Of a stretch of 64,000 nt of DNA, positions 2,582 to 51,162 are shown one piece after another (the stretch's first letter is position 1; the number at the start of each line of letters is the position of its first letter). The stretch is taken from IMG/VR virus record IMGVR_UViG_3300030333_006991. One strand, 5' to 3'. The notes beneath the pieces are model-generated. The model was not told the origin of the DNA and ran no database searches. It was given only the letters and a program-made list of their open reading frames with translations. The stretch comes from an uncultured virus (IMG/VR IMGVR_UViG_3300030333_006991) (Duplodnaviria > Heunggongvirae > Uroviricota > Caudoviricetes). Both the position numbers and the translations under genes were made by a program.

Positions 2582-2635
2582 ATGAAAGATGGGAAAGCCC
2601 ATATAGTGGTGCTGTTCAATAAGGTTGGTGAAGAC

Positions 2636-8497: not shown

Positions 8498-8499
8498 GT

Positions 8500-10839: not shown

Positions 10840-10848
10840 AACCAAATC

Positions 10849-10859
10849 TTCTTATAGTC
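10849..10859 (+). promoter_or_regulatory. TTCTTATAGTC promoter motif
   Basis: 32 nt before ATG 10891. Confidence 0.8.
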
Positions 10860-10890
10860 GGGATGCCCGATAAAGTTAGAAGGTGCTATT

Positions 10891-11310: not shown

Positions 11311-11323
11311 GGAAGTGTCTTAG

Positions 11324-12763: not shown

Positions 12764-12779
12764 AGCGGTTAAAGTCGTA

Positions 12780-12793
12780 GCATTCTTATAGTG
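12780..12793 (+). promoter_or_regulatory. GCATTCTTATAGTG promoter motif
   Basis: 31 nt before ATG 12824; TTCTTATAGTGGTTCTGCCAC is shared with 55278. Confidence 0.8.
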
Positions 12794-12823
12794 GTTCTGC
12801 CACATTCACAGTGGAGAATTACT

Positions 12824-14116: not shown

Positions 14117-14120
14117 AATA

Positions 14121-14243
14121 ATGGATGATACGATAGAACAAGGAGCCAAATGGGGTGCAGGATTCGCACTTGGATGGGTCGCTGTTTCCATCGGCTTAGG
14201 TGTCGCAGGGATTACTCTTGCCTATTTGTTAAACAATAGGTGA
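14121..14243 (+). CDS. 40-aa single-TM protein (stand-alone anchor-like)
   Basis: Read manually: MDDTIEQGAKWGAGFALGWVAVSIGLGVAGITLAYLLNNR. Confidence 0.65.
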   Translation: MDDTIEQGAKWGAGFALGWVAVSIGLGVAGITLAYLLNNR

Positions 14244-15232
14244 GTCGTGTGGTTAAGAAAAAGGGAAGAGTCCGATATTTAGGGGGAAAACCTCGTAAAC
14301 CTCGGAAGTTGAAACGAGACAAAAATATTACTCCTGAGGAAGCGAAAGACCGTCTTTCTTTTAGCGCAGATTCTATGTTTGTAAGAGGTGAGGATGGGCA
14401 ATTTGGAGGGATGAAATCTCAACAACCACTCCCCCCTAAACAAGAATGCAAAGTTTGTAACAGTAAAAATGTTCAATTAAGTCAAAAAGATGATGTGACC
14501 ACATGGTTGAGAATCAAATGTGATACTTGTGGTGATTTGAGTGATTGGGATAAGGATAACCTGAAAGAAGAGTTTGATGATAAAGGTTATCCAACTTGCA
14601 CTGAATGTTTCCCGTCTTTCGTTGTAGGAGTAGACACTCCTAATTCTTACACTCCTGTTGATACTTGGGAAGAAGAAACCACTACAACGATTGGTTCATG
14701 CCACGAATGCGGCTATGAAGCCCCATACAATCATCGTCAGATGCGTCACTCCTATTTGTTGGGTGCTGAATCTTTTAGCGCAGAAGGCGGTATGGATGTT
14801 TTTACGCAAATGATTATGTTGGGATTTCTTGACCACAGTTACGCTGTTGCAGCCATAGAGCAGCAGGATGTTTCACCATCCCACCTCATACCAATTTATG
14901 AACGGATGCAAGAGGCGTGGGGAGGTCAAGACGGGATGCTTGATTATTTGCGTCTTGCTCAGAATAATCCTGCTGAAGGAAGGTTGTTTGCTAAAACCAT
15001 GATGTATGATAGTGGGCAAGTAAGAGATGATAAAATAAAATATTTGTGGAGTTTCGATGATGAGTATAGTGAAGCCGATTGGAGAAAAGAGTTTGAACAC
15101 ACGCTTAATTCAGCAAGTTTTAAGGCGGAAACCTCTCAATCTTTACTTTCAAGTATTCCGTTGAGTTTGTTAGCCGTAGGAACGGGAATCTTAGCCTCAT
15201 CACTCGTTTATTGGAATAGGCAACGAGAATAG
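14240..15232 (+). CDS. FxAE-linker modular protein (basic N-terminus, Zn ribbons, C-terminal TM)
   Basis: FSAD, LGAESFSAE, FKAE; CKVC..CDTC and CTEC..CHEC. Confidence 0.8.
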   Translation: MSRVVKKKGRVRYLGGKPRKPRKLKRDKNITPEEAKDRLSFSADSMFVRGEDGQFGGMKSQQPLPPKQECKVCNSKNVQLSQKDDVTTWLRIKCDTCGDLSDWDKDNLKEEFDDKGYPTCTECFPSFVVGVDTPNSYTPVDTWEEETTTTIGSCHECGYEAPYNHRQMRHSYLLGAESFSAEGGMDVFTQMIMLGFLDHSYAVAAIEQQDVSPSHLIPIYERMQEAWGGQDGMLDYLRLAQNNPAEGRLFAKTMMYDSGQVRDDKIKYLWSFDDEYSEADWRKEFEHTLNSASFKAETSQSLLSSIPLSLLAVGTGILASSLVYWNRQRE

Positions 15233-15244
15233 TTTTTCGTAGCC

Positions 15245-15255
15245 TTCTTATAGTC
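15245..15255 (+). promoter_or_regulatory. TTCTTATAGTC promoter motif
   Basis: 30 nt before ATG 15285. Confidence 0.8.
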
Positions 15256-15284
15256 CTTCTGTTCAATATCATTGAGTGAACGCT

Positions 15285-17069
15285 ATGTCTAAACAGTTGA
15301 GTCCCAATACTCAAGAAATCTTCATTCTTATAGATGAGAGGTTGATGGCTGCTAAGAATCCTAAAAGAAGTCGCCATCCTCGTTATTTCATAGTCGCAGC
15401 CTATTCGTCTAAAATGAAGGCTGAAGAAGCGGCAGACGGGTATCTTGACGCATTAAGTTTCGCTCCTAAAGGAGGAAGTGGTCAAGGTTGGAAACAAGGA
15501 AAACTCACAGGAGAGATTTCCAAGACCACGACAAGCGGAAAAACCAATGAAAAGTATGGCGAAGTTTACGCTACTTACAGAGATGATGATGCCGTTTTAG
15601 GACATCTACGCATTCTCAAGGTTAATATCAACCGACCACCTGAAGATGAAATTGATTACATGACCGCAGAACATTTTGCAGGAGAAATGAAATCTCTTGT
15701 TCAAACTTATGTGGAATTGCGTTATCCTGATGATGAGGAAATGCAAACTGCTCTTTTTGAAAATATCACTTCAGGTAAGCCCTCAGTTTCACTTGAAGAA
15801 ATCCGAGATTATGTGAACGCTCGCTCGGCTTGGTATGCTGAATCCTTTGGTTCGGAGGCAGAATCCACATATTATCTTGTTACCTTTGAGGTGCGTGATG
15901 GAGAACGAGAATACTTACATCGTTCTATTTATTCTGCCGATGCCAAAGATATGTCCGACAAAGAATTGATTGCGGAGGAGTGGGGGGAAGAGAACCCTCA
16001 AGATGATGATTACAAAGGATTCCATTGGGTCTATGATGAAATCTTGGTGAGAGTTTATTCCAAGAAACCTATGGATGGTAAGACAAGGAAAATATTCAAT
16101 GAATACGGATTATATGCGGAAACCTTTAACGCCCCTTATGCGGGCGCAGGTGCGCTCATGGATATTACGAAAGACACTTCGCTTGGCAACTTTACCTCTA
16201 AGGAATTAACTGAATCGAGTGCGATTCATGGAGATTTCGACCATGCGAGTTTGAATTATTCAGGTCATCAGAACATCGAAGCAAGGGCTGAATCTTTTAG
16301 CGCAGAAACCTCTAAGAACGCTCTTGTTCTCGGAACCGTAGCGGGTGAACCTGCTATGATGGTTTTCATACAAGGGAAGGAAGACGATAACGGTTTTACC
16401 ACAGGAAGAATCATTGGATGTGATTCTGAAGAAGAAGTTATCGAGGAAGCGGAAAAGATTCGTGATGCAGTAGGTCTTGAACGATTGAAGAAATCCACTC
16501 AAAGTTGGGAAAGGAATGTAAAGAGCCATGCAGAATCCTTCGGTGCAGAATATACACCTTTACAAACCGACACTTTGATTTGTGGACAGTGTGATGAGCC
16601 TATGGAACGCCATCATAATGCAAAATGGTTGGAAAATGATTATGTGTGTAGAGCCTGTAATCATGGTTACAGATTTGACGGTATTTGGGATTACACTTGG
16701 GACGATGTTCCTTTGGAAGAAAGAGTTGCTTGGTTTGAGGCGGAATCATTCTCTCAATGGTCACAAGATGAAATGAACGAGCCTTCTCATAAAGGGCGGA
16801 AAATGGAGTTTGACGATTGGTTGGATGAGGAAATAGAATCGCATGGAGATATTCCGTTGTCTGAATGGGGTTACGAAGAAGAACATGACGAACCTGAGCA
16901 TCAACACAGTGAATCATTCAATGCAACAAAAGGAATAGACACTTTTGCAGAACCTTTTGAGGACTTAGACGACTTTTACAGTGGCACGAAAGGAGCCGTA
17001 AAATTTGTCGGCTTAGGTGTCTTGGTAAGTGTCGGAATATGGATGACGAAGAATAAACTACTAAAGTGA
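15285..17069 (+). CDS. FxAE-linker modular protein with at least 7 modules, C-terminal TM
   Basis: TAEHFAGE, YAESFGSE, YAETFNA, RAESFSAE, HAESFGAE, EAESF, HSESFNA. Confidence 0.8.
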   Translation: MSKQLSPNTQEIFILIDERLMAAKNPKRSRHPRYFIVAAYSSKMKAEEAADGYLDALSFAPKGGSGQGWKQGKLTGEISKTTTSGKTNEKYGEVYATYRDDDAVLGHLRILKVNINRPPEDEIDYMTAEHFAGEMKSLVQTYVELRYPDDEEMQTALFENITSGKPSVSLEEIRDYVNARSAWYAESFGSEAESTYYLVTFEVRDGEREYLHRSIYSADAKDMSDKELIAEEWGEENPQDDDYKGFHWVYDEILVRVYSKKPMDGKTRKIFNEYGLYAETFNAPYAGAGALMDITKDTSLGNFTSKELTESSAIHGDFDHASLNYSGHQNIEARAESFSAETSKNALVLGTVAGEPAMMVFIQGKEDDNGFTTGRIIGCDSEEEVIEEAEKIRDAVGLERLKKSTQSWERNVKSHAESFGAEYTPLQTDTLICGQCDEPMERHHNAKWLENDYVCRACNHGYRFDGIWDYTWDDVPLEERVAWFEAESFSQWSQDEMNEPSHKGRKMEFDDWLDEEIESHGDIPLSEWGYEEEHDEPEHQHSESFNATKGIDTFAEPFEDLDDFYSGTKGAVKFVGLGVLVSVGIWMTKNKLLK

Positions 17070-17079
17070 GGTGCGGAAA

Positions 17080-18543
17080 ATGGCTGTTCAAAAAAGAAGA
17101 CAAAAGGATTTCGGAGAAAACTTAGGTGGTCAAGACCTGAATCTATCTGACCGTGCCGCACCACTTCGCATCATTATCGGTGGCCCACCTCATTCAGGAA
17201 AGTCCACTTTGATGCACCTTTTAGAAAATAAATTCAACGAGTATCATGTTCCTGTGGAATTAGTGGATATGGATTTATCAGCCCCTACTGATTTACGAAG
17301 TAAAGAAGGATTTACCCGAACCCGTGATAAAAGAGATTGGACGCTTGATTTAGCAAGAGAGGCGCAACAAATGTTTGAAGATGCGGGAGGTTCAGAAGTT
17401 GTGCTTGGTGATTCCGTAGGATTGATTTCAAGCATCACGGAAATCCTTTCCCAACCTGCCGATGTAGCAATTTTAATTGCATCAGGGAATAAAGGTGATG
17501 ACCACAATGTTTATCGTAAGGTCATCAATAAGTGGAAAGATTTCTTTGGTGATTTACGCAAACCTCTTTTAGTGGTGGTTCGCTCTTCTATGAATCCTGA
17601 TGATATGTCTATGTTCGACCCTCACGACAACTATGGTGTTATCGTAGGGCTTGACCGTAAAGCCTTTGAAGATGGCTTAATCAATCCTCAAGACGCTTGT
17701 GTAGAAGGCATTGTTTTTGAAATTGCACAGGCTTTCGACCTCACTGTTTCCTCTTCACCGACTTCTGCACACTTGGAACGCATTCAAGATAAGTGGCCGA
17801 GTGTTAAAGACATTGATACATGGACACCTGAAAAGGCTCCAAATCTAACACCTGAAAAAAGACAACGCCTTTCAAAGATTGAAAAGGATTATTTCCGTGA
17901 ACGAGAAAATAAAGATTTCGTAGTCGGGGATGACTACCGTAATCGTCAAGCAGAATCATTCCATGCTGAAGTGCATGGATTTGGTGAAGAAGGATATTAT
18001 TCTGTTTACGAAATCATGGAGTTGATAAGCGATAACTACATCTACGCAGGTGTAACACCTATTGATTGGCGAGAGATTTTCACTGATTACGAGTTAGAAG
18101 AAATCCAAGATGAAGCCGATGATATGGGAGAAGACCTTGAAGAGTATCTTTATTCTCATTACACGACAAGAAGTTGGTTGATAGGGCAGGTTTTGGCTGC
18201 TTCTTCCCTACAAAGTATGCAACGAATATTCCGAGAATACAAATTACCATACCGAGTCGAAGGAGACAGAGAATTAGCAGACGGTAGTTACGAATACGAA
18301 TTAACTCTTTTGCCACAATTCAAATCTAAAACTTGGAACGCCCAAATGCTTGAGGCGAAAGGAAAGTTATGGCAAAAAGAAAAACCTAAAAGCAAAGGTC
18401 GTGGTTATTGGGAACAAAAAAGCAGAGCATCTATCCGAAAAGACCCTGATTTCATTAAAGCGCAACGCTATTTCTTAGGGGGTATAGGTATCGGTATTCT
18501 CAGTTTCCTCTACTCAAAGAATAAGCGGCAAGGTGAAGTTTAA
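17080..18543 (+). CDS. FxAE-linker protein with N-terminal P-loop NTPase (GGPPHSGKS type), acidic module, C-terminal TM
   Basis: IIIGGPPHSGKST; linker QAESFHAE; terminal FLGGIGIGILSFLY. Confidence 0.8.
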   Translation: MAVQKRRQKDFGENLGGQDLNLSDRAAPLRIIIGGPPHSGKSTLMHLLENKFNEYHVPVELVDMDLSAPTDLRSKEGFTRTRDKRDWTLDLAREAQQMFEDAGGSEVVLGDSVGLISSITEILSQPADVAILIASGNKGDDHNVYRKVINKWKDFFGDLRKPLLVVVRSSMNPDDMSMFDPHDNYGVIVGLDRKAFEDGLINPQDACVEGIVFEIAQAFDLTVSSSPTSAHLERIQDKWPSVKDIDTWTPEKAPNLTPEKRQRLSKIEKDYFRERENKDFVVGDDYRNRQAESFHAEVHGFGEEGYYSVYEIMELISDNYIYAGVTPIDWREIFTDYELEEIQDEADDMGEDLEEYLYSHYTTRSWLIGQVLAASSLQSMQRIFREYKLPYRVEGDRELADGSYEYELTLLPQFKSKTWNAQMLEAKGKLWQKEKPKSKGRGYWEQKSRASIRKDPDFIKAQRYFLGGIGIGILSFLYSKNKRQGEV

Positions 18544-19232
18544 TGTCGTCATATCCTGAGGCTCAACCCCGAAAAGATTACTACGAAGTCGTAAACATTT
18601 TCACTTTAGGAGATAAAAAAGTAGCCGAATTAACCAACGGAAAATTCATAGTCCTTACTCCTGAAGAATACCTACAAGCCCGTAAAGGTATTTTTCAACA
18701 CTACGCTTCGGAAAAACACCCTGAAGGTGGCTACACCTTAGACCAACTTTTAGATTCCATAGCAGGGTCACAAGGAAGAGAATCTTATAGCGATGCGATG
18801 GCTTACAATCACGGTTTAGCCGAAAACTTTGAAAGCGAGCATTCTTATAGTGTTGCTGCTGAATCTAACCGAGGTGTCGAACCTATGAGTAAAAACAATA
18901 TGATGATGAATGTTATGGTCTTGGGAGGTGCTGCTTTGGTAGGGTTCTATTTTGACCGTATCATGGGTATGTTCCGAGGCGGAAATGGAAATGGAAATGG
19001 AGAAGAATCCAATGCTGAATCTATGCAGAGTGCAGCAAATCAAGGATTCATGGAAGATTGGCAAGGTGGAAACTCAGGAAACCCTGCTGACGACCCACGC
19101 TTAGAGAGCAAGACCTTACAAGGTCCTGTTCAAGACGAGCCGCAAATCCGTTACGATTACCAACCGAACAAGGGGCCGAGTCCAACATTCCACGATTCCA
19201 AAACTCGCCAAACAGGATTCTTTGAATACTGA
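18543..19232 (+). CDS. membrane protein with AE linkers
   Basis: LAENFESE, AAES, NAES; internal TM. Confidence 0.75.
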   Translation: MSSYPEAQPRKDYYEVVNIFTLGDKKVAELTNGKFIVLTPEEYLQARKGIFQHYASEKHPEGGYTLDQLLDSIAGSQGRESYSDAMAYNHGLAENFESEHSYSVAAESNRGVEPMSKNNMMMNVMVLGGAALVGFYFDRIMGMFRGGNGNGNGEESNAESMQSAANQGFMEDWQGGNSGNPADDPRLESKTLQGPVQDEPQIRYDYQPNKGPSPTFHDSKTRQTGFFEY

Positions 19233-19241
19233 GGTGAGCCA

Positions 19242-19640
19242 ATGTCGGGTTGTGGATGTAATGGAGGTAGTGGAATGAAGAAATATGGAGCCGATGACGA
19301 CACCGAAGAAGTGGCTACTAATTCCAACACTATCTGTGATTCAAGTCCTCAAACTTACGCTCGTAATCAAAGAATGAATAAAAGCCTGATGGCAGGTGTT
19401 CTATTCACTGTTTTAGGAGGGGCGATTGCTCCTGCTCTTTCGCAAGGTGATGATTCATGGAAGAATCGTGGTCTTGTAGGGTTTGGAATCGGTTCTCTTG
19501 CAGTTATTGGAAATTACATGGTTATGGGAGGTTCCATTATGGATGCAGCCAAAACTGAGTATGATGAATTATGTCCCGCTTACACAGGTGGAGGACACAC
19601 AGGAGAAGAAGAGGTAGATAACGCTGATGTTCAGCCTTAG
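19242..19640 (+). CDS. two-TM membrane protein
   Basis: SD GAGGTGA; two hydrophobic helices. Confidence 0.75.
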   Translation: MSGCGCNGGSGMKKYGADDDTEEVATNSNTICDSSPQTYARNQRMNKSLMAGVLFTVLGGAIAPALSQGDDSWKNRGLVGFGIGSLAVIGNYMVMGGSIMDAAKTEYDELCPAYTGGGHTGEEEVDNADVQP

Positions 19641-19651
19641 GAGGAATAAAT

Positions 19652-19987
19652 ATGCCAATTAGTTACGACAAGGCTTACCCTCATGTAGAACCTTTTTATC
19701 AAGACACTGATAGGTCAGGCGGTGGCCGTTTATCCTATATTGAAAACAGTGATTACGCATGGAACGCTGAAGACGCTCCTGCGGAAAATCTTATGAGTCA
19801 CATGAGCCATTCGGCTTTGATTGGCGGGCTTAGTTTCGTGGCTATGAAAGCCTTCCGCCAAAATACCCAAACTGCATTTGTGCATTCTGCGCTTATTGGT
19901 GCAGGAGCATTCATTTACATGGGCCTCTTTGGACACGGGCTTCCTACTGAATTAAGAGGACCGTTTGTTCAAAGAGGTGACGAGTAA
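19652..19987 (+). CDS. two-TM membrane protein
   Basis: SD GGAGG; WNAE motif. Confidence 0.75.
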   Translation: MPISYDKAYPHVEPFYQDTDRSGGGRLSYIENSDYAWNAEDAPAENLMSHMSHSALIGGLSFVAMKAFRQNTQTAFVHSALIGAGAFIYMGLFGHGLPTELRGPFVQRGDE

Positions 19988-21369
19988 TGGGTTGGTATCG
20001 CATTTGGAGTCCCGACAGCCCTTACACTAAAGGGACACCTGCCGAGGGTGGAAAATACTACGAAGCATGGATGAGTGGTGATGCTGCGGGCGATTTAGTT
20101 ATGATGCTACGCTTAATCACAGGCGATAAATGGTATTCTAACGAAATGGGATATATGCGTGATAGTGATTATATCCCTCGTAGCGGCTACGATAAGAATA
20201 AAGGTAAAGATGGTAAGTGGATGGCAGCCGAAAATTGGGGTGGCGACCCTGATGGTAAATTAGCAAAGGCACTTGCTAAGGCGAGAGAGAAATCTAAGAA
20301 GCCACGAAAGCCTTTGAAGATTGAGCGATTAGATACTGAATCTTTCAATGCGTTAGATATGGATTTGGATAGAAGTGATTGTTGCGAATTATGGGTTGAA
20401 AAATTGTATGACGAAGGGCGAATTGGTTTCGGAGAAGCAAGCACCCTTTTAGTGAGTATTGAGGATGGAATCAAGTGTTCTTCACTTGGAAGTCCAACTT
20501 GCTCAAAGCATGATTCATCGGCAGAATATCTTCTGCTTGACCGTCTACACCCCTCTGAACCTTCTGAGAAAATAAGTGAGGATGAGTTTGATTATTTTTT
20601 CACTGAGGATGAGAATGGATTTGGCAACTTTTTCGACACTTTAGAAGAGGCTAAATCAAGCAAACCGCATAAGAAGAATAATCTACATACACCTTTTCAT
20701 GTGTATGGTAGGCATGATGGAGAGGATTGGCAATTGATTGAGGGTGATAGGTGGATTTTGGATGAAAGGTGGTGGAATAATCCATATCGTGCTGAAAACC
20801 GACCACCTTCCTATATGGCCGATTCCGATGCACACAAATTGATGGAAGCCTCATGGCGTATCAATTCTTTTGTGGAATCAGGAGAAGAATATCCTGAATG
20901 GTGGAAATCTCGACTTTCCGTGGCTGCTTCCAATGTTGATGATTTGGCTGATTATCTTGATTACGCTATGTCGGACGATTACGATGCAGAAACCTTCCAC
21001 GCTCACGGTTATTATCAAGTTTATCTGTATTACGGAGGAGAATACCCGAATGAAATCCGATACGCCCGAACATTTGCCGAGGCTCAGAGTATTGAAAATA
21101 CGAGTGGAGCAGAGTTTTCTGAAATTGTTAATCCACAAGGAAATGTGGTTGATTCGCAGACAGGCGAGGAATACCCTCCTCTCGTCTTCGATGCAGAATT
21201 CAATGCTAAAGAACGCAGTATTGCTAAAAAGTCGTGGGACACCTTAAACAATGTGGAAACTGCGGTTGGCACAATTGGATTAGCCCACATGATAGGTTTA
21301 GGGGCTCTTTTTGGTGGTGGTTTGGCCTTCTTGAAAGGCAGAAAGTCAAATAGTAAAACTGAGAAGTAA
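19987..21369 (+). CDS. FxAE-linker modular protein, C-terminal TM
   Basis: AAENWGG, TESFNA, YRAE, DAETFHA, FDAEFNA; helical module EEYPEWWKSRLSVAASNVDDLADYLDY. Confidence 0.8.
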   Translation: MGWYRIWSPDSPYTKGTPAEGGKYYEAWMSGDAAGDLVMMLRLITGDKWYSNEMGYMRDSDYIPRSGYDKNKGKDGKWMAAENWGGDPDGKLAKALAKAREKSKKPRKPLKIERLDTESFNALDMDLDRSDCCELWVEKLYDEGRIGFGEASTLLVSIEDGIKCSSLGSPTCSKHDSSAEYLLLDRLHPSEPSEKISEDEFDYFFTEDENGFGNFFDTLEEAKSSKPHKKNNLHTPFHVYGRHDGEDWQLIEGDRWILDERWWNNPYRAENRPPSYMADSDAHKLMEASWRINSFVESGEEYPEWWKSRLSVAASNVDDLADYLDYAMSDDYDAETFHAHGYYQVYLYYGGEYPNEIRYARTFAEAQSIENTSGAEFSEIVNPQGNVVDSQTGEEYPPLVFDAEFNAKERSIAKKSWDTLNNVETAVGTIGLAHMIGLGALFGGGLAFLKGRKSNSKTEK

Positions 21370-21389
21370 TCGTAAGGAGGGAAAAAAGT

Positions 21390-21848
21390 ATGGCTCATCT
21401 ACGCTCAACTCAAATTGACTACGAAGGTATGGGAGACAGAGTTTTCCAACAACAACAAGCCATTATGGAAGATTTGCGTGACCAAATCCCATCTATTGAA
21501 TACGACCCAAGCCGTTACGACCCAAGTAATGAGCAAGGTTCCGTTTTCGGAGGTGGAACAACCCATTACAGTAACGGCAATCGCCCTGCTATGGCGGTTA
21601 ATCAAGCGCAAATGGCAAACAACCCTTCAATGAACAGAACAGGAGCCGTTAGGTCTGTTTTTGATTTACACAGTAACGAAGCGACCTATGATAATATCCC
21701 GCTCAGTAGAAGAGTAAACTATTCCAACGCTTACAATACCCCTCTCAGAATGTCGCAACCTCCTGTGGATGCGGCCAATGCACAATATCAACCAAATGAA
21801 TTACTATTGGTGACGGACTCACGCACTAAAACTCGGAGTCCCTTTTAG
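21390..21848 (+). CDS. Gln/Asn-rich hypothetical protein
   Basis: ORF with GGAGG SD. Confidence 0.7.
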   Translation: MAHLRSTQIDYEGMGDRVFQQQQAIMEDLRDQIPSIEYDPSRYDPSNEQGSVFGGGTTHYSNGNRPAMAVNQAQMANNPSMNRTGAVRSVFDLHSNEATYDNIPLSRRVNYSNAYNTPLRMSQPPVDAANAQYQPNELLLVTDSRTKTRSPF

Positions 21849-21859
21849 GGGGGCTCATC

Positions 21860-24800
21860 GTGCCGTTCAAATCTAAAGAACAGGAAACTTATTTGCGAAT
21901 AAACGAGCCTGAAATCTACGAGCGTTGGAAAAAACGCTATGGGCTTTACAAAGGTGCGGAAACTTTTACGCCTGAATCCGAGTCGGAAGTTTACGATTTA
22001 ATGGACGCCTTTGAAGACGCAGGTTATGAAATACTTCTTGTTGGTGGTGTAGTCCGAGACACTCTTTTAGGACATCTTCCTTCTGATTACGATTTTTCCA
22101 CGAATGCAACTCCCGATGAGGTGGCTGAAGTTGTAGATTCTATGAGTGATTACAAGTATATTCGGGGAGCCGAAGGCGCACAGGCTAAAAGAGCCCTCAC
22201 TTCTTTAGTGTTGAGTCCAAGTGGCGAGGTTTTTGAAATCACGACTTATCGAGCCGAATTAGGTTACGAAGATGGCAACCGAGCGTTACCAATTGCTGTT
22301 CCTGCTGAAACCTTTGCTGAAGACGCTTCTCGTAGAGACATAACGATTAACTCAATGGGAATGGATAAATCAGGTGAGATTCACGACCCTATGAACGGTC
22401 TAAAAGATTTAGAGCAAGGAATTATCCGAGCCGTAGGGAATCCTGAAGATAGATTTACCGAAGACCCGTTGAGGATGATTCGGGCGATTCGTTATTCCGT
22501 CAGATTCGGATTTCCAATGGACGAGGCTACGGAACAAGCCATCATAGACAATGTAGACCTTGTAAACACCTTATCCTCTAAAAGGTTACGAACCGAAGTA
22601 GGCAAAGTTTTGTATTATCCTAACGGTTTCCGAAGATTGATGGAAACAGGTATTCTGCCTACCTTAATGCCTGAATTCCGTGAAATCGAGCAATACGAAC
22701 ATCAACGAGATTATCACCCTGAAGGAAACCTTTACAATCACTATGTTGCCGCCTTCGACACTTTTACGCAACAGCCCGCTCGCACAGAAATGGGTGCGTG
22801 GGGTTTACTATTCCATGATATTGCGAAACCTGCCACCGCAGAGTGGACAGGAGAGTATCACACTTTCAAAGGTCACGACAGCCGAGGAAGAGATTTAATT
22901 CTGAATCAATACAACAATAAAGCAGGGCCTTTTGAGTTTTCCAAGAAGGAATTACAAGCGTTGGCGTGGACGACAGAACATCATTTGAACAAGTTTTGGG
23001 ATATGAAAAAGCCTACAAAGGTAGCAGAAATGGCGAACAGCCCTCATTATCCTCTTTTACTTGAAGTGATTTACGGAGACAGCATGGGAGGCCATGATGA
23101 GAAATTGGCTAAAAGATTACAATTCATCGAAGAAACGAAAAACGAAGTAAACGCTCGCAAAGCCTTAGTCGGTGCAAGACCTGAAGGATTCGCTCTCCGT
23201 GTGTTTCAAGAGTTGGATATTCCGAAAGGTAGAGAGCGAGGAATCGTGATGGCTGAAATTGAAAGATTGGTAAGCACGGGTGAAGCGAGCGATTACGAGC
23301 AAGCATTGGAACAACTGAAAGGCAATCTAAGTGCAGAGTTTACACCATTTATCCCTATTACCGACATCACGATTCACAGCAAACAGTTTGACGAAGATGA
23401 AGGTAGAATGATAGACACTTACACTCCTGTTGAAGACCCTGATGCGAGGAAGGATTGGGTAGGTCGGGTGGTTTATGATAGGTTCCGAAGAAAGGGCGAG
23501 ATAGTGGATGAAGGTTACGGTTTGCAGAACGGGAGAGTTACGCATTTCCTTTACATCATCAAATTAGATGGAGTTGGATTTTTAGAAGTGGCGAACACGA
23601 TGAATTATTATCAGGCTTTTGATAAGTTTGACCCTTACGGTATTTTAATTCAAACGGGAGAGTCATGGGTTCCTCTAAGTGACGATACCACAACATCTTA
23701 TGGGAGTTTGGCTAAACATGAAGTAAAGTTTCCTATATGGGAAGGTGATGGTGGCCCTGATTTTAGTCGCCATAATTGGCAAGAGTGGACGGAGAAATCG
23801 CCTGATACAGTAGAAGAATGGGTCAGAGCGTATCATCAAGATACTCGGCCTGAGTGGGAATCTCATCTTTTGCTAAAAGAGAACCCTGAGGAATATGACC
23901 GAAGACGATTGATGGGTATGTATGGTCGAAGAGATTGTGATATTTGTGGTAATTCTATTGAAGAGGAGAAAATGTCGCAATTACGGATGGAAATGGGTAT
24001 GGATTCTGATATTTACTATGATGTGATTTGTGATACTTGTGCCGAGGCGGAAGGTAATGACGAGTGGACTTGGTTGTGGGACCACATAGAAGATGAATTA
24101 CGAGATGCGGAAAAAAGAGAGGCTGCGTTGGACGACATCCACGCTGCGGAAACTGTGATGACTAAACTCGACATTCCTACGGATGAAAGTTGGTGGATAG
24201 GGAAAGAAGTTAGAGATGTAAACGGCAGAGTAGGACACATTGTAAAGGATAATTGGGCTAAAATACAAGGTATGAAAGCCTCAGGTTTGTTGAATTGGAT
24301 TCCTGTTTCAGATAGTGCCACGGCAACGCATCGAGTGTGGACGATAGATATGGGTAGAGGTAAAGAAATTGAAGTTTCTAACGCTCTCACAGTGTTCGGC
24401 CAAAAACAACTTTTCGACCCTTATGGTATCATCTTTTACGATAGTCGAGATACCGCCCCAAAAGGTCTACGCAAGAGCAGAGAGGAGAAGTGGGTTCCTC
24501 TCAGCGCACACCCTAAGACGGCTTATGGTGTGGAATTGATAGGTTTTGATAAAACTCCTGCGTCTACTGCTCACACTTATACACCGCATAAAGGTTATCC
24601 TCTTGTTTCACCTGCGTTTAACGAGAAAAACATAAAACTCGATTTAGAAACTCGCAACAGAGTTTTCGGAGACAGACATATCATTAAGGATTCCGAGATG
24701 GAAAGATGGGGAGTGATAAAGAACGCCAATAAACACCCTTATTTTATGAGAATGTTGGATGAAATTGTTAGAGAGGAGTTTATCCAATCTATGTGGGCGG

Positions 24801-25330
24801 AGTGGGAAGAGTATTACGCTAATTACGGAAAGCCTTCCATCCACCCACAGCACCCCTACACGCCCCCTCCTTTAGCAACTTTGCACAAGGACTTTTTGAA
24901 CCACGAATTAAGCCCTTATGAGATTTGGGATAGTTATTGTGAATGGTTGGCCTATGACGAGTTTGGTGATGATTACATTCAGGACTATTATCGCACTCCT
25001 GCCGAGTTACAAGATTTGGATATTGATTTGTCTTTTTCTGATGTAGAGGAGGAGATACAAGATATTACTCAAAACTACTTCTCTCAGTATATCGAACCTA
25101 ATTACAAGGAATGGATGAAAGATATGTGGAATAGCGAAAACTCAAGTAGTCGGGCTGAATCTTTTAGGATGATGACTGAAAGGTTGCCTAATGAATCCGT
25201 CCAAGATTGGGCGAAGCGACAGCGAGCAGATGAAACTCTTCGGGTTCTAACGAGCAGCCTCTACACTATGGGCGTTATGGCATTTGGATTAGGATTGGGT
25301 TGGTATGTTTCAAAGAAGTATCTTGGGTGA
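21860..25330 (+). CDS. cca: FxAE-linker polyprotein containing a class II CCA-adding/poly(A) polymerase-family nucleotidyltransferase with HD-type domain, duplicated FDPYGI modules, C-terminal TM
   Basis: LVGGVVRD, DYDFSTNA, RRDITINSM, EDPLRMIRAIR, YHPEG, FHDIAKP, HTFKGHD; flanked by KGAETF and LSAEF. Confidence 0.85.
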   Translation: MPFKSKEQETYLRINEPEIYERWKKRYGLYKGAETFTPESESEVYDLMDAFEDAGYEILLVGGVVRDTLLGHLPSDYDFSTNATPDEVAEVVDSMSDYKYIRGAEGAQAKRALTSLVLSPSGEVFEITTYRAELGYEDGNRALPIAVPAETFAEDASRRDITINSMGMDKSGEIHDPMNGLKDLEQGIIRAVGNPEDRFTEDPLRMIRAIRYSVRFGFPMDEATEQAIIDNVDLVNTLSSKRLRTEVGKVLYYPNGFRRLMETGILPTLMPEFREIEQYEHQRDYHPEGNLYNHYVAAFDTFTQQPARTEMGAWGLLFHDIAKPATAEWTGEYHTFKGHDSRGRDLILNQYNNKAGPFEFSKKELQALAWTTEHHLNKFWDMKKPTKVAEMANSPHYPLLLEVIYGDSMGGHDEKLAKRLQFIEETKNEVNARKALVGARPEGFALRVFQELDIPKGRERGIVMAEIERLVSTGEASDYEQALEQLKGNLSAEFTPFIPITDITIHSKQFDEDEGRMIDTYTPVEDPDARKDWVGRVVYDRFRRKGEIVDEGYGLQNGRVTHFLYIIKLDGVGFLEVANTMNYYQAFDKFDPYGILIQTGESWVPLSDDTTTSYGSLAKHEVKFPIWEGDGGPDFSRHNWQEWTEKSPDTVEEWVRAYHQDTRPEWESHLLLKENPEEYDRRRLMGMYGRRDCDICGNSIEEEKMSQLRMEMGMDSDIYYDVICDTCAEAEGNDEWTWLWDHIEDELRDAEKREAALDDIHAAETVMTKLDIPTDESWWIGKEVRDVNGRVGHIVKDNWAKIQGMKASGLLNWIPVSDSATATHRVWTIDMGRGKEIEVSNALTVFGQKQLFDPYGIIFYDSRDTAPKGLRKSREEKWVPLSAHPKTAYGVELIGFDKTPASTAHTYTPHKGYPLVSPAFNEKNIKLDLETRNRVFGDRHIIKDSEMERWGVIKNANKHPYFMRMLDEIVREEFIQSMWAEWEEYYANYGKPSIHPQHPYTPPPLATLHKDFLNHELSPYEIWDSYCEWLAYDEFGDDYIQDYYRTPAELQDLDIDLSFSDVEEEIQDITQNYFSQYIEPNYKEWMKDMWNSENSSSRAESFRMMTERLPNESVQDWAKRQRADETLRVLTSSLYTMGVMAFGLGLGWYVSKKYLG

Positions 25331-25334
25331 TTTC

Positions 25335-25751
25335 ATGGGGTATTTTGATTTAGACAAATATCTTCCGCTAAAAGAAGAAGACCGACCTGAAGGCGTAATC
25401 ACATTAGAAGGTGTGGAATCTTACGAAGAGTTTGCTGAGAAAGAAGTGACGAAACATCATCAACATGGTGCAGTAAGTCCTTTGATGTCTGTTCTTGGAA
25501 GAGGTGGGGCTACCGCTCAAAATATGTTGATGGCTTCAGAAACTTTTAGCATGGAATCCTATATGGTTCCTGAATACGCTGTTAGGGAAAATTACGGTCA
25601 AACCTTTACTCCGAATATCGAACCCAATTGGATGATACGAGAACAATTGACGGAATTACGAGATGCGTTCCCTGATACCAAACTAAATATTCCGAAAAAG
25701 AAACTAATTGGAGCCTCTTCACTCCTCTCATTATCTCCCTTCGGAGTTTAA
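25335..25751 (+). CDS. hypothetical protein with ASETFSME linker
   Basis: SD GGTGA before ATG 25335. Confidence 0.7.
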   Translation: MGYFDLDKYLPLKEEDRPEGVITLEGVESYEEFAEKEVTKHHQHGAVSPLMSVLGRGGATAQNMLMASETFSMESYMVPEYAVRENYGQTFTPNIEPNWMIREQLTELRDAFPDTKLNIPKKKLIGASSLLSLSPFGV

Positions 25752-25762
25752 TTCTTATGCGA

Positions 25763-25776
25763 GCATTCTTATAGTC
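25763..25776 (+). promoter_or_regulatory. GCATTCTTATAGTC promoter motif
   Basis: 26 nt before ATG 25802. Confidence 0.8.
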
Positions 25777-25801
25777 CTTCGGTTCAATAATAGTGATTGC
25801 T

Positions 25802-26824
25802 ATGGCTAACAATGGTTTAGAAATGTTCAATGCTATCGCTTTATTCACCGTAGGACTTGTCGGAGGCCATGCGGTCATTTCAATGATGACGAATAATAAA
25901 GAGGAAATGGCGACAGAGGAGCAACCCAATCCTACGGATGCAGAAAGTATGATGTATGAAGACACAGAAGCCAAAGTAATCATACCGTATTCACTTTACG
26001 AAGGTGGACAAGGTGCGCTATACAGAGATTATGTTTGGGAAGGTCAAGACCACTTCCCGTTTGATGGTGAAATGTATTCACGACCTGCTCTTACAACTTT
26101 AATGTATGATTCTGCCTTCGGGTCGAGTCCTTCCCGCACTATTGATTTGCCTTATCGTATTCACGAAAATGAGCCGATAATGACTGATACTCTCACTGTT
26201 GCAGGTTCCTACGCTATGGGCTCTCCAACTACATTGGAACACTATGGCTCGGAATCTTTTGCAGCGAATGGGGCTGATGAATGTCCACAAGGAATGAAGT
26301 GGGATGCAAGTCGGAAGATTTGCGTTCCGCCCGAACAACCTATGCACGATTATGGGGCTGAAACTTTTAGAAGTCAAGCAACACCTCAAATGCAACTTGG
26401 AGACAAGATTGAAGGAAGTCAGAACGCCTTGAATGAGGTTAGCACTTCAGCATGGGTAGGAGATAATTGGAAAAAGGTAGGTTATCATCCTGAAGCAGCA
26501 AATTATCCACTTATACGCCCACGCACTAACAATCCTGTGGTTTCAGATATGATTGATGAGGTTTCCTCTATTCGGATGCCTCCTGCACAACATCTGAGTG
26601 TAGGTAGAGACAGCATCAGAATGTATGACCCATACACTTTCATGGAAGAAAATCCAAATGTGAATGTTCAATATCGTCCTACCGACACGGAATTCGGAGA
26701 AGGAGCAGAAACAAAGACAAGTCGAGAGTGGCAGACCTCTAATACAGTTTTCGATTACAGTGACCAACAAATAGAAACACAAAGTAAGTTTGGCGGTTTC
26801 CGCCAACGCCTGAGGAGAGTGTAA
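25802..26824 (+). CDS. N-terminal TM protein with FxAE linkers and a small Cys module
   Basis: YGSESFAA, YGAETFRS; CPQGMKWDASRKICV. Confidence 0.75.
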   Translation: MANNGLEMFNAIALFTVGLVGGHAVISMMTNNKEEMATEEQPNPTDAESMMYEDTEAKVIIPYSLYEGGQGALYRDYVWEGQDHFPFDGEMYSRPALTTLMYDSAFGSSPSRTIDLPYRIHENEPIMTDTLTVAGSYAMGSPTTLEHYGSESFAANGADECPQGMKWDASRKICVPPEQPMHDYGAETFRSQATPQMQLGDKIEGSQNALNEVSTSAWVGDNWKKVGYHPEAANYPLIRPRTNNPVVSDMIDEVSSIRMPPAQHLSVGRDSIRMYDPYTFMEENPNVNVQYRPTDTEFGEGAETKTSREWQTSNTVFDYSDQQIETQSKFGGFRQRLRRV

Positions 26825-26827
26825 ATC

Positions 26828-26837
26828 TTCTTATAGT
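26828..26837 (+). promoter_or_regulatory. TTCTTATAGT promoter motif
   Basis: About 30 nt before ATG 26868. Confidence 0.75.
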
Positions 26838-26867
26838 TGAGAGGACAAAGAAAGGTAGGTGCAAAAT

Positions 26868-28406
26868 ATGAAATCTCTACTCCTATACAGCGATGATGCG
26901 TGGAATAATGACCGCACAGACAACTTTACTAACGCTGTGGTAAAGAAGGAATCGGAATTAACCGAAGAAGAAAGAGAAACATTTTACCCTTGTTCCATGT
27001 ATTTTGAAGTTGGAGCAACCGATGATACAGGATATGAAACACTTAGGATTGAAGAACAACCTATCAGTTACGATGGTCAGGATTTCAAGATGTTCGTCAT
27101 TACTATGAAAGGTCCTAACGGAGAAATTGCTACACAGAATTTCCCTAATCCTGAAACTATTGATTGCAGTAAGTTTGAATGGGCTAAAACAGGGTTTGGT
27201 GGCGAACAAGGAGACACCGTTAAATTCTGTCTAACGGGAGCGGAAACTTCCAATAAAATTGACCGTAAAAAGATTGAAGATTTCATTAGTAATAAAATAA
27301 CAAACATTCGTGGTGAAGAAGAGGAAGAAGAAGAAGATTCCGAAGCCGAATTCTATCCTGTTGGCGAAGGTCGCATCCTCGGAGATATTACAGCCACAAC
27401 AGAATACCAACCAATTGCTAACGCAGAAGAAATGGCTTCAGAGTATTCCGTTGAAAGAATCAATCCCACACCTGTTACAGGCAAGAACGATGTAAGGGCT
27501 GAAACCTTTGCTTCTGAAGGTTCTTGCACAAAATGTGCAGAAACCTTTGCAGCCTGTGGGTGTTCAAGTGAAACCATGAACACGGAAGCCAATCCTGAGG
27601 TTGCTGATGTGTCGTTGTGGGATGATATGAGTATGCCTGAAGGAACAGGAAATATTGTTGGTCAAGCAACGCCTGAAACGGATTTCACTCCTTTTAGCGT
27701 TTCCGCAGAAACCTTCAACAGTAGTGTGCAAACTTACGCTTCTCACGCTGTTCCTCTTGGTGTAGGTTCCGTCATGGGTCAAGCAACTCCTGATACTGAT
27801 TTTACTCCTTTTGGAACAAGGGCAGAAAACTTCCATGCAGGGCGTTATGGAGTAACTGATAAACCTATTGAGGGATATTGGGGGGCAACCATTGACTCTC
27901 TGATTGCAGATTTGGAAGGATTCAAGATGTCTTACGGAGGTAATACTCCTGTGAAGATTCGGGCAGGTATCGGATGGAGTGGTGTTGGAAGTTATGATAT
28001 AGGTTTCCAAGAATACACAACAACCTTAGAGAAACTCAGTAAAGATGAATATGATGCAGATAGAGAAGAAATTAAGGCTGATTTGGATAGCGGAAAAGAA
28101 ACCATTAACGCTTTAGCCCTTGTAAAAGAGAATTATGACCCTCCTTATGTTTCCAAGTGGAACGCAGAAAACTTTGATGCGGAACAAGTTGTTCCCTTCG
28201 GAGTGGTCGGAAGTGGAAACGATTTCGGACAGAATCTTGCAGAAGATTTCAGCGCAGAATCTCGTCATGGCACTTGGGTAGGTCTTGGACTTGCTCTATT
28301 GGCAGGAATGGGAGCGAAGATGGCGTTAGACAGAATGGATAAAAAGGAAGAGGCTCCTGATTCGGAGGAACCCTCAGAAGAATCAGATGAGGCCCCTGAC
28401 GCATGA
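26868..28406 (+). CDS. FxAE-linker modular protein rich in PxGxG..G[QD] repeats, C-terminal TM
   Basis: RAETFASE, CAETFAA, SAETFNS, RAENFHA, WNAENFDAE, LAEDFSAE. Confidence 0.8.
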   Translation: MKSLLLYSDDAWNNDRTDNFTNAVVKKESELTEEERETFYPCSMYFEVGATDDTGYETLRIEEQPISYDGQDFKMFVITMKGPNGEIATQNFPNPETIDCSKFEWAKTGFGGEQGDTVKFCLTGAETSNKIDRKKIEDFISNKITNIRGEEEEEEEDSEAEFYPVGEGRILGDITATTEYQPIANAEEMASEYSVERINPTPVTGKNDVRAETFASEGSCTKCAETFAACGCSSETMNTEANPEVADVSLWDDMSMPEGTGNIVGQATPETDFTPFSVSAETFNSSVQTYASHAVPLGVGSVMGQATPDTDFTPFGTRAENFHAGRYGVTDKPIEGYWGATIDSLIADLEGFKMSYGGNTPVKIRAGIGWSGVGSYDIGFQEYTTTLEKLSKDEYDADREEIKADLDSGKETINALALVKENYDPPYVSKWNAENFDAEQVVPFGVVGSGNDFGQNLAEDFSAESRHGTWVGLGLALLAGMGAKMALDRMDKKEEAPDSEEPSEESDEAPDA

Positions 28407-28420
28407 GAGGGGGTTAAAGT

Positions 28421-29476
28421 ATGGCTCGACAAAAACTTAGCGCAGAATTTTTACAAAGCCTTTACAAACTGTTTGGTAAAGGTGCTTTAACAGACGCTCA
28501 ACAATTAGCCTTTCAACGAGGTGCTTTAGAAGCGATGCAGCAATCTGCTTCAAGACACTTAGGAGATTCGGCTCAACAAACGGTGCAAGACATCGCAGCA
28601 CAAGTGGCTCAAGTTAGTGGAGCGAATCAAAAAGCAAACACAAACACTTTGAAAAGCCTCTTGACGAATCTACATAGAGATGGTGGCGATGATGCAATCT
28701 ATGATTGGATGACTGTTATGGCAAAAGATACCACTCCTGATGGAAAGGCCAATTTCCGTCATTTAGTAGCAAACGCCCATGATGGGCAGTTGAAAAAGGT
28801 CTTTAGTGGTCTTGCCGACACAGGTGATGATTTGATACTGAAAGGTCGGCTCAAAGAAGTTATCCCTGCGGCAAAGGGTGTGGATTGGGATGATTGGGTT
28901 CCTCCACCTCGTAATGTAGCAGACCCGTCTACCATGACGAGAGAAGAGGCGAGGGCGTGGTTGGCAGCAGGACTTTTAGCAAGAGGTGTAGACCCTGCGG
29001 ATGATGCTGCCGTTAAAAGTTGGGCGGCCAAGTCCTTAGGTATTGCTAAGGGAGCAGCCGTTCCCGTCACTACGGCTTGGATTCTTATAGACCTTGCACA
29101 CGGTCTTACAGGTGCATCATACGCTGACTTGCTTCTAACTTTCTTCAATCCCTCAAGATTATTCGATACAGAGGATGGTGAAGAAGACAGACCACCTTCA
29201 TGTTCTATTACTAAATCTGCTTCCTGTTCCGTGACTAAAGATGATGGAACCGCTTACACCACTCAAACCGAGTGTGAAGATAATGAAGGGGTTTGGGATG
29301 AAGGTGGAGAATACACGACCAAAGCCGAGTGTGAAGACAACAATGGGGTTTGGGATGAAGGAAGCGATGGGAGTGGAAGCCTCCTTTCAACCTTAGGTTG
29401 GGTTCTCATCGGTTTAGTCGGTATTGTAAGCCTGACCTTTATCATGCGCCTCATCAGTATGATGACGGGCAGATAA
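28421..29476 (+). CDS. membrane protein with YTTxxECEDNxGVWDEG tandem repeat
   Basis: Helical N-terminus, two-copy Cys repeat, terminal TM. Confidence 0.75.
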   Translation: MARQKLSAEFLQSLYKLFGKGALTDAQQLAFQRGALEAMQQSASRHLGDSAQQTVQDIAAQVAQVSGANQKANTNTLKSLLTNLHRDGGDDAIYDWMTVMAKDTTPDGKANFRHLVANAHDGQLKKVFSGLADTGDDLILKGRLKEVIPAAKGVDWDDWVPPPRNVADPSTMTREEARAWLAAGLLARGVDPADDAAVKSWAAKSLGIAKGAAVPVTTAWILIDLAHGLTGASYADLLLTFFNPSRLFDTEDGEEDRPPSCSITKSASCSVTKDDGTAYTTQTECEDNEGVWDEGGEYTTKAECEDNNGVWDEGSDGSGSLLSTLGWVLIGLVGIVSLTFIMRLISMMTGR

Positions 29477-30516: not shown

Positions 30517-30547
30517 TTCACTCGCCTCAATAGTCAAATAGGGGCTC

Positions 30548-34876: not shown

Positions 34877-34943
34877 AAAAAAGTTGAGTAATATCAGAGT
34901 CGCTGAAAACGACACGATAAAAAATAAAATGGAGATGAAGAAA

Positions 34944-35597: not shown

Positions 35598-35640
35598 TCG
35601 GCCACCCGTTTTAGGAGATAAAAAATAGGAGATGAGAAAT

Positions 35641-37598: not shown

Positions 37599-37603
37599 AG
37601 TAA

Positions 37604-40341: not shown

Positions 40342-40342
40342 A

Positions 40343-48526: not shown

Positions 48527-48554
48527 CTTCTGTTCAATTAAGTTGAGGGATGAT

Positions 48555-51161: not shown

Positions 51162-51162
51162 G

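Follow-up and report, generated by a model that had tools for sequence, protein, structure and literature searches.

A CCA-type nucleotidyltransferase as an apparent swappable cassette in a predicted tail-anchored protein of a probable archaeal virus

The open reading frame and its enzyme

This paper concerns one gene within a 64,000-nucleotide stretch of DNA from an uncultured virus (IMG/VR record IMGVR_UViG_3300030333_006991); the whole stretch is called the window. The open reading frame (ORF) at 21860..25330 encodes a large protein in which an enzyme related to those that add CCA to the 3' ends of tRNAs is set between a short leader and a hydrophobic C-terminal tail. An initial annotation, made from the nucleotide sequence, had read the ORF as a leader, an enzyme lying between KGAETF and LSAEF, duplicated FDPYGI..WVPLS modules, a zinc finger and a transmembrane segment. 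Every one of these elements can be located in the sequence (Table 1).

The fusion is not an assembly artefact, because contigs from three other sequencing runs (X3, X8 and X10) span the entire ORF at ~95-98% identity. Near-identical DNA is present in 18 non-source runs from 16 studies, and all of these samples are marine, seawater, sponge or sediment.

The identity of the enzyme domain is established by several comparisons. Two Pfam families score over their cut-offs: the PolyA_pol head (PF01743, residues 60-190, E 4.1e-26) and the PolyA_pol_RNAbd neck/body (PF12627, residues 217-273, E 1.5e-10). The PHROG family for tRNA nucleotidyltransferase covers residues 55-414 (E 1.2e-56), and the closest solved structures are the CCA-adding enzymes 6ibp (E 4e-34) and 1miv (E 7e-33). 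The alignment to these two structures can be followed residue by residue over GGVVRD..DYD, RRDITIN, DPMNG and FTEDPLRMIRAIRY. The stretch VGGVVRDTLLGHLPSDYDF, which holds the GG-x-x-RD and DxD carboxylates, matches its counterpart in both, and RRDITINSM and FTEDPLRMIRAIRY align as the RRD and E-D-x-x-R motifs; these head residues correspond to what we take to be the named class II motifs. Residues G62-G63, R66-D67, D76, D78, R158-R159-D160, E201-D202 and R205 are invariant in 12 of 12 family members, as are the HD-type residues H286, H319-D320, H339-D340, H375 and D407. The Pfam HD model matches residues 314-380 of the 1156-residue protein at 14.4 bits (cut-off 22) and is over its cut-off, at 24-27 bits, in three of the eight relatives scanned (P0006, P0016 and P0009). 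With catalytic and HD residues invariant in all 12 members, the annotation of a bacterial-type (class II) CCA enzyme with an HD-type region and intact-looking motifs is borne out. As judged from its sequence, the module is a member of the class II CCA-type nucleotidyltransferase family with a putative HD domain, probably one that adds CCA rather than poly(A).

Among NCBIfam models, those for CCA enzymes rank first (TIGR02692 over positions 12-445 of 466, E 6.8e-51) and PcnB follows at E 1e-37. All NCBIfam matches are below their cut-offs; the best equivalogs reach 173.4 bits against curated thresholds of 438.8 and 290, and the 'multifunctional CCA addition/repair' model PRK10885 matches residues 148-382 (E 1.1e-29) with 103.5 bits against 451. 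These scores, with the PcnB match, would suit a poly(A) polymerase or some other template-independent nucleotidyltransferase that tags host or viral RNA, and we know of no safe way to separate class II CCA enzymes from poly(A) polymerases by sequence. We nevertheless consider such an activity very unlikely: the top-scoring models are CCA models that span the whole module, the nearest solved relatives are CCA enzymes, and the HD domain is typical of CCA addition/repair enzymes.

Virus-encoded relatives of the module are numerous. It is matched by 504 phage records, at up to 30.5% identity, and by the enzyme of Halogranum tailed virus 1 (HGTV-1, gene 242) at 27.6%. Across the window and 19 loci scanned for tRNA genes, the window has none, a 160 kb relative (G004) has one and locus L157 has one. 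With so few tRNA genes present, the enzyme is unlikely to serve mainly in maturing tRNAs encoded by the virus itself.

The remainder of the protein is largely without known relatives. For residues 495-1156 we found no Pfam family and no NCBIfam family at E 0.01; just four homologues of these 662 residues were retrieved, and a scan of viral contigs for close relatives of the whole protein returned none. The two beta modules are 28% identical to one another (E 1e-8 in self-alignment), with FDPYGI at residues 590 and 852 and WVPLS at 603 and 878. In the zinc ribbon, two cysteines (C230 and C233, numbered within the C-terminal piece) are kept in nine of nine aligned rows. An acidic/helical region then leads to the putative tail anchor, a single predicted hydrophobic helix in the last ~30 residues. 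The N-terminus is hydrophilic and has no signal peptide. The tail scored under the 1.6 threshold of our hydropathy scan, and the anchor is called by direct reading of the sequence. An AlphaFold model of residues 495-1156 (pLDDT 47.6, pTM 0.24, 9 rows) was unusable and did not resolve the fold of the duplicated module.

Table 1. Positions in the window of the ORF, its parts and the neighbouring features discussed in the text
Feature	Position	Strand	Basis or remark
HerA/FtsK-type ATPase with C-terminal hydrophobic segment; candidate genome-packaging ATPase	2582..4174	+	also PHROG 'terminase large subunit', E 1.8e-18
Block of 18 same-strand ORFs rich in A-E-[TS]-F-x-[AS]-E, many with a C-terminal anchor preceded by AE	6989..29476	+	
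Whole ORF, 1156 aa, GTG start	21860..25330	+	coordinates are exactly one ORF
N-terminal leader MPFKSKEQETYLRINEPEIYERWKKRYGLYKG-AE, residues 1-34 (MPFKSKEQ..W / MPFKSKEQ..YKG)	21860..21961	+	same leader heads other cargo elsewhere
Junction 1, A33-E34 then T-F (KGAETF; A33 at nt 21956); putative cut after Glu	21956..21967	+	AE in 6/6 aligned relatives
CCA-adding enzyme/putative HD phosphohydrolase cassette, residues 35-493	21962..23338	+	Pfam, PHROG, PDB and NCBIfam matches; invariant residues; limits are protein ends in relatives
Pol-beta-type nucleotidyltransferase head (GGVVRD..DYD, RRDITIN)	22037..22429	+	PF01743, E 4.1e-26; alignment to 6ibp and 1miv
HD-type region (H286, H319-D320, H339-D340, H375, D407)	22700..23080	+	invariant in 12/12; Pfam HD match weak
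Junction 2, A492-E493 (LSAE, then F; A492 at nt 23333)	23333..23338	+	AE in 6/6 relatives
Beta module copy 1, ending FDPYGI..WVPLS	23423..23704	+	internal duplication
CxxC..CxxC zinc-ribbon-like element (CxxC at residues 693 and 724)	23936..24040	+	sequence pattern
Beta module copy 2	24161..24529	+	internal duplication
Junction 3, A1099-E1100 (RAE, then SF), ~30 residues ahead of anchor	25154..25159	+	AE in 4/4 relatives having the region
C-terminal hydrophobic tail anchor (..LYTMGVMAFGLGLGWYV..), then SKKYLG	25247..25309	+	read from sequence
Adjacent paralogous beta-sandwich (jelly-roll-like) pair, ORFs 34884-35597 and 35632-36222; candidate capsid proteins	34884..36222	+	

Cassette exchange within a conserved frame

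The enzyme module moves. Among 80 related metagenome loci, 79 contain it and 69 could be judged for what follows it. In 38 of the 69 the ORF ends where the module ends, mostly with ..KTKRNA before the stop codon. The other 31 continue, and 25 of these have A/S-E at the junction: 12 run on into long extensions, and 13 have NAE-G (or a close variant) followed by a hydrophobic tail, which is 22 residues long in 12 of them. A set drawn from protein databases, which overlaps these loci, has A/S-E at the junction in 16 of 18 close relatives and in all 14 distant ones (13 AE, 1 SE).

The modules that keep company with the enzyme also change. One relative (P0123) has the leader, AETY, a 30-residue Cys mini-module, NAET, the same beta module and zinc ribbon, Sod_Cu and the anchor, and no CCA module at all; another (P0124) has both the Cys mini-module and the CCA module behind the leader. 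In the 160 kb relative the syntenic ORF holds the leader and the anchor with different modules or cargo between them, and in a further relative (G005) the CCA enzyme is a stand-alone gene on the opposite strand, 43% identical over the full module. In the commoner relatives the CCA module comes last, behind DUF5872, DUF5754 and Sod_Cu, and in a group of 35% identity it lies inside proteins of 1300-2000 residues that also bear NUDIX. The Sod_Cu (E 8e-41) and NUDIX modules of these relatives are likewise flanked by AE.

The initial annotation had named phylogeny as a check on the enzyme. A quick maximum-likelihood tree of 97 rows unites all viral CCA modules in a single clade (SH-aLRT 99), and with midpoint rooting the close fused forms (groups A+B) have the stand-alone form as their sister (support 98). 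The bacterial neighbours in this tree are a biased sample because the rows were gathered by pattern-based fetches. Taken as a sequence pattern, the enzyme is a swappable cassette between conserved Ala-Glu junctions in a frame of leader and tail anchor.

The junction motif has the logo A-E-[T/S]-F-x-[A/S]-E, and it is not random. The pattern AExF occurs 32 times in the 18 ORFs of the block, whereas 500 shuffles gave 1.77 on average and never more than 7; elsewhere, in the remaining 38 ORFs, it occurs 3 times, with 2.27 expected. In the 1156-residue protein only five AE dipeptides are kept among relatives: those of the three junctions in Table 1 (AE33, AE492 and AE1099), AE1048 (4/4) and AE728 in the zinc ribbon (6/7). 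AE dipeptides within the enzyme fold vary from relative to relative. In the orthologues of a further block ORF, 26859-28406, the motifs fall in conserved islands such as GNDFGQNLAEDFGAE, and in one relative two copies of this island have an additional module between them.

The ends of the frame are constant as well. Seven block ORFs have a hydrophobic segment within their last ~30 residues (hydropathy scan, threshold 1.6), and an AE lies 5-27 residues upstream of the segment in six of them and 121 residues upstream in the seventh; ORF 26859-28406 has the same tail layout as the 1156-residue protein and, like it, falls under the scan threshold. A 39-residue profile of the leader, counted at E <=0.001, matches 476 cluster representatives, 58 of them at E <=1e-10. 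In ~140 of the best 150 of these 476 the match begins within the first five residues, and the proteins range from 33 to 1022 residues. Among the matches listed, 57 leader proteins are of at least 140 residues: 45 have A/S-E at residues 26-60, typically as ..KGAESFSAE, 30 have a hydrophobic tail, often ..SAESIDSFSPARL-ILGASIGVALGLY.., and only three match any Pfam family. These proteins suggest a constant frame, in which a 32-residue leader closed by Ala-Glu comes first, the middle varies, and a final Ala-Glu stands before a membrane anchor at the C-terminus. Lower-scoring matches (MPFKSEKQRRYLWANEPEIA..; P0241, P0253, P0260-P0271 and similar) have neither AE motifs nor an anchor, and because such related N-termini exist the leader domain may be older than the cassette system. 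In cultured phages we found no leader match (best E 0.3).

We lean slightly towards the view that the protein is cut at its Ala-Glu junctions, behind the glutamate. Stand-alone and last-position modules end exactly at the junction site (38 of 69 loci), and an AE stands shortly ahead of the anchor in six of the seven scored tail-anchored ORFs and, as NAE-G, in 13 loci. Release from the anchor would call for just such a pattern.

Several observations count against cleavage. The AETF at residue 149 falls within the fold of the head domain and is not retained in relatives, which means that the four letters by themselves do not mark a site. The motif is weaker in the 160 kb relative, where bare AE is found at 10.0 against 5.8 per 1000 residues and T/S-F is scarce. 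Six of the 31 continuing junctions are without A/S-E. Many CCA modules that follow Sod_Cu have ..PSPFETIEW.. upstream, with the nearest AE ~25 residues away. Finally, no protease family came up in the window (Pfam, to E 1 on 18 of its ORFs), a scan for the pattern G-x-S/C-G returned nothing, and searches of the 160 kb relative with Pfam (148 ORFs) and PHROGs (116 ORFs) were equally empty; most ORFs match no family, so these negatives do not establish that a protease is absent.

The missing protease would suit a protein that is never cut: one membrane-tethered multi-domain protein in which A-E-T/S-F-x-A-E forms flexible linkers or docking peptides and the CCA enzyme acts while tethered. So would the length of the motif. 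Its seven residues, often doubled (AEDFGAE, AESFSAE), exceed a minimal P2-P1 signal and suit a binding peptide, and repeats such as GNDFGQNLAEDFGAE recur as units. A docking peptide might bind a shell, scaffold or membrane partner, in the manner of the cargo-loading peptides of protein compartments. We regard the uncut protein as unlikely, and the docking version of it equally so, given the modules that end at the junction and the AE placed ahead of the anchor. The initial annotation had proposed cargo embedded in a membrane-anchored polyprotein; the cassette between two conserved AE junctions and the leader and anchor frame uphold that description, and the cutting and the presence in virions are what we infer from it.

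We also considered an archaeosortase/exosortase sorting signal (PGF-CTERM, PEF-CTERM and their kin) and rejected it: residues 495-1156 match no CTERM model in NCBIfam, the N-terminus is hydrophilic and most copies of the motif are distant from hydrophobic segments.

The virus, its other genes and its host

Of the 55 window ORFs, 12 match a Pfam family. Besides the HerA/FtsK-type ATPase they include TFIIB, a sugar/glycosyltransferase cluster, a Cdc48/PAN-like AAA ATPase, SUI1 and a complete large subunit of DNA polymerase D (PolD). The stretch from 17 to 36 kb of the window, with TFIIB in it, is syntenic in five contigs of 35-107 kb. Four IMG/VR virus records of 123-166 kb carry the jelly-roll pair, two of them with inverted terminal repeats, and all four encode the PolD subunit DP2 at 50-55% identity to that of the window. 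The 160 kb relative also encodes TBP, PCNA, ribonucleotide reductase (RNR), a flap-type exonuclease, PolX, a ligase, a primase, helicases, three C5 methylases and an ArsA/Get3-type ATPase, but neither Pfam (148 ORFs) nor PHROGs (116 ORFs) recognized a portal, an HK97 capsid or a protease in it. Marine metagenomes contain more than 180 related loci.

Every related locus keeps the jelly-roll pair. One of the two proteins was modelled (pLDDT 65.8) as a beta sandwich, and its best solved matches are the capsid proteins of SPV1 (Z 7.7 over 130 residues) and HHIV-2 (Z 6.5). SPV1 is Sulfolobus polyhedral virus 1, and both are membrane-containing archaeal viruses. In the protein atlas, the clusters closest to the jelly-roll protein carry the label of 100% viruses. 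The element is probably a new lineage of large (~160 kb, linear, terminal-repeat) marine archaeal viruses that would themselves probably contain a membrane, and the block around the ORF is probably a viral morphogenesis region.

The same genes could be imagined in a linear mobile element whose HerA/CedD-like ATPase, von Willebrand factor A (vWA) proteins and AE-rich anchored proteins form an apparatus for DNA transfer or a surface structure. The ATPase does match HerA, CedD and TraG-type models weakly, no portal, HK97 capsid or classic double jelly-roll family is recognized, and the fold evidence for a capsid is modest. We think a non-viral element improbable: the four long relatives are themselves virus records, the atlas clusters of the jelly-roll protein are viral, its top solved matches are archaeal virus capsid proteins, and the pair is present in all relatives.

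The initial annotation had set the bacterial-type enzyme against the class I enzymes characteristic of archaea. In control genomes the textbook division is seen, with the class I family matched only in the four archaea and PF01743 only in ten bacteria. The sole archaeal link of the virus group is a metagenome-assembled genome (MAG), the Tara Red Sea 'Methanobacteriota archaeon', which holds a contig of the group; it is incomplete and its binning unverified. The MAG gave no class I CCA match. Its own DP2 is 41-44% identical to that of the window. On another contig the MAG carries a cellular-looking class II enzyme of 452 residues (L188; G001:C59) that has no HD domain and is 32% identical to ours over the head only. 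Should the binning be correct, the group that is the probable host may itself rely on a CCA enzyme of bacterial type. The contrast with class I is therefore weak, as the only linked archaeal MAG has a class II enzyme, and a class II enzyme is already present in the archaeal virus HGTV-1.

Several further genes deserve mention in their own right. DP2 lies at 59130-62681 on the minus strand, has counterparts in L169-L176, matches three Pfam domains (E 1e-82 to 1e-108) and is seemingly virus-encoded. A DP1 family was found neither in the window nor in the 160 kb relative, whose gene next to DP2 has PolX domains. Published abstracts, as far as they go, call PolD exclusive to Archaea.

TFIIB (29482-30537, minus strand) keeps its place in five syntenic loci at 77% identity, SUI1/aIF1 lies at 62706-63026 (minus strand) and TBP is encoded in the 160 kb relative (L180:15740-16381). 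On the strength of these three finds the virus seems to carry basal transcription and translation-initiation factors.

The jelly-roll proteins have wider kin. A beta-sandwich family with a conserved C-terminal helix pair (..YTLYDGPDALIANKLLELGI..NVDWYKR..) takes in 34884-36222, 45720-46199 and 46209-48353 (all plus strand). The helix-pair ending also closes the 714-residue ORF 46209-48353, and the 160 kb relative has at least four paralogues.

The sugar cluster at 36324-41239 (minus strand) comprises a GDP-mannose 4,6-dehydratase (E 1e-131), an FkbM methyltransferase and three glycosyltransferases, whose sequences suggest glycan modification of the virion or of the host surface. One glycosyltransferase and the adjoining AAA ATPase are conserved in all four IMG/VR relatives.

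A 125-residue protein with two hydrophobic helices (51154-51531, plus strand) is 87-95% identical across lineages in which other shared proteins are 30-60%; it always adjoins a homologue of the 639-residue ORF 48543-50462, and in one group it precedes the CCA gene by 2-5 kb. The ArsA/Get3-type ATPase of the 160 kb relative (L182:6473-7618 in G004; E 3.5e-61) has no homologue seen in the 64 kb window. This family inserts tail-anchored proteins, and a viral member fits a virus with many tail-anchored proteins. In ORF 17071-18543 (plus strand), the N-terminal ~290 residues have weak matches to P-loop nucleoside/nucleotide kinases and are followed by RQAESFHAE. As a polynucleotide kinase it is matched at the level of Walker A only (Pfam E at least 0.0045, NCBIfam E 4e-4, PDB E at least 0.26); by its sequence it may be a further enzyme cassette, and a kinase there would bear on RNA repair. 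Stretches of D-x-S-G-S (vWA/MIDAS-like) were picked out by eye in 1298-2581 and 12791-14116 (both plus strand), neither with a Pfam match; in the latter the stretch sits between AE motifs at residues 56 and 203.

Release, delivery and known systems

We propose that the ORF is the precursor of a modular family of tail-anchored proteins and that its CCA/HD module is cut free and carried in the particle, a proposal that we judge to stand at about even. The variable middle would consist of interchangeable modules bounded by Ala-Glu, here usually A-E-T/S-F, with CCA/HD first in this virus. The anchor would bring the precursor to a membrane destined to become the particle's internal membrane, and a Glu-specific protease would then cut behind the Ala-Glu junctions and release an enzyme of ~459 residues. 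The freed HD domain could heal 3' phosphate or cyclic-phosphate ends, and the nucleotidyltransferase could restore the 3' CCA of tRNAs, either early in the next infection or within the infected cell.

The later steps are less secure than the cutting. Packaging into virions falls somewhat short of an even chance, and a counter-defence role is doubtful. In its fullest form the proposal is a dedicated loading system: a leader, Ala-Glu cut sites, a cleavable anchor (possibly inserted by a viral Get3/ArsA) and a Glu-specific protease would load enzymes into ~160 kb archaeal virus particles, so that CCA/HD, Cu/Zn superoxide dismutase and NUDIX cargoes arrive ready-made to disarm the host's first responses. 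We offer this extended form tentatively, and would sooner expect it to fail than to hold.

There is evidence on the other side. In PRD1-type assembly the capsid lies towards the cytoplasmic face of the membrane, and the lumen that holds the genome lies on the other. A protein with a tail anchor that enters the membrane from the cytoplasm keeps its bulk on the cytoplasmic side, and because of this topology delivery into the next host is not self-evident. The capsid assignment of the jelly-roll pair is modest, with a model of pLDDT 65.8 and middling Z scores below 8, and a Foldseek search of a viral library with the capsid candidate gave generic beta-sandwich matches only. No tRNA-targeting defence is tied to any host.

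The topology would be less troublesome for a protein that stays out of the particle. It could reside in a membrane of the host or of a viral factory, its CCA/HD module maintaining or repairing the tRNA pool of the infected cell, in the way proposed for stand-alone phage CCA enzymes, and the polyprotein layout only co-ordinating expression. The relative G005 has the CCA enzyme in a normal gene of its own on the opposite strand, and in phages such enzymes are widespread and non-structural (504 phage records; PMC7824862, section 3.4.9). We rate this explanation unlikely, since the gene is part of a run of same-strand ORFs with the packaging-type ATPase on one side and the jelly-roll pair on the other, and since the frame is common to many proteins without a recognizable enzyme (three of 57 with a Pfam family), which fits a structural or cargo function better than a metabolic one.

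If delivery of a released cargo proves right, the order of leader, AE, cassette, AE and anchor would be a rule, readable from sequence, for what abundant uncultured marine archaeal viruses bring into their hosts, and this would be the first tRNA 3'-end repair enzyme embedded in a structural-type precursor. It would mark damage to tRNAs, oxidative stress and nucleotide signals as points of early conflict in archaeal infection. The frame could also act as a natural cargo-loading tag. Even without packaging, the exchange of cassettes at a seven-residue motif is an unusual and clean example of domain shuffling. In literature search listings we met no account of virus-encoded PolD, of giant archaeal viruses of this kind or of the AE motif, and the main text of a paper on Poseidoniales viruses (PMC11706807) contains none of the terms looked for in it.

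How does this protein compare with known systems? Virus-encoded class II CCA enzymes are already common, and it is the architecture that is new. Those of jumbo phages have been interpreted as RNA-repair counter-defence (PMC7824862, section 3.4.9). The stand-alone enzymes of jumbo phages and of HGTV-1 (gene 242) belong to the same enzyme family, but they are separate soluble proteins, whereas here the enzyme is a cassette in a 1156-residue leader and anchor protein and falls in a distinct clade. The multifunctional CCA addition/repair protein of the E. coli type shares the head and a putative HD-type region, although the present module is far under its equivalog cut-off; the E. coli enzyme has phosphatase and cyclic phosphodiesterase activities.

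The closest parallels in design are found in tailed phages. The prohead proteases cut after glutamate, T4 gp21 at L/I-x-E and phiKZ gp175 at S/A/G-x-E. The internal proteins and Alt of T4 and the inner-body proteins of phiKZ lose an N-terminal targeting leader after Glu, undergo multiple cuts and include enzymes carried in the particle, all as proposed here. By contrast, the motif here is x-A-E followed by T/S-F, the precursors are tail-anchored and the particle is probably membrane-containing and built of jelly-roll proteins; searches brought out no protease of the T4 or HK97 type, and no portal or capsid family.

African swine fever virus offers a second parallel. Its pp220 and pp62 are membrane-attached precursors under the inner envelope, cut at Gly-Gly-X by a viral cysteine protease. 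They share with the proposed reading of our ORF the membrane-attached polyprotein precursor, the large double-stranded DNA virus, the internal membrane and the short cut consensus. They differ in that attachment is by an N-terminal myristate rather than a C-terminal helix, the products are structural rather than an enzyme, the motif and protease are other ones, and there is no sequence relation.

Lastly, Megavirus chilensis packages a Cu/Zn superoxide dismutase in its virion. In giant viruses that enzyme is a separate protein; in the relatives described here, Sod_Cu is an AE-bounded cassette that stands beside the CCA module or replaces it.

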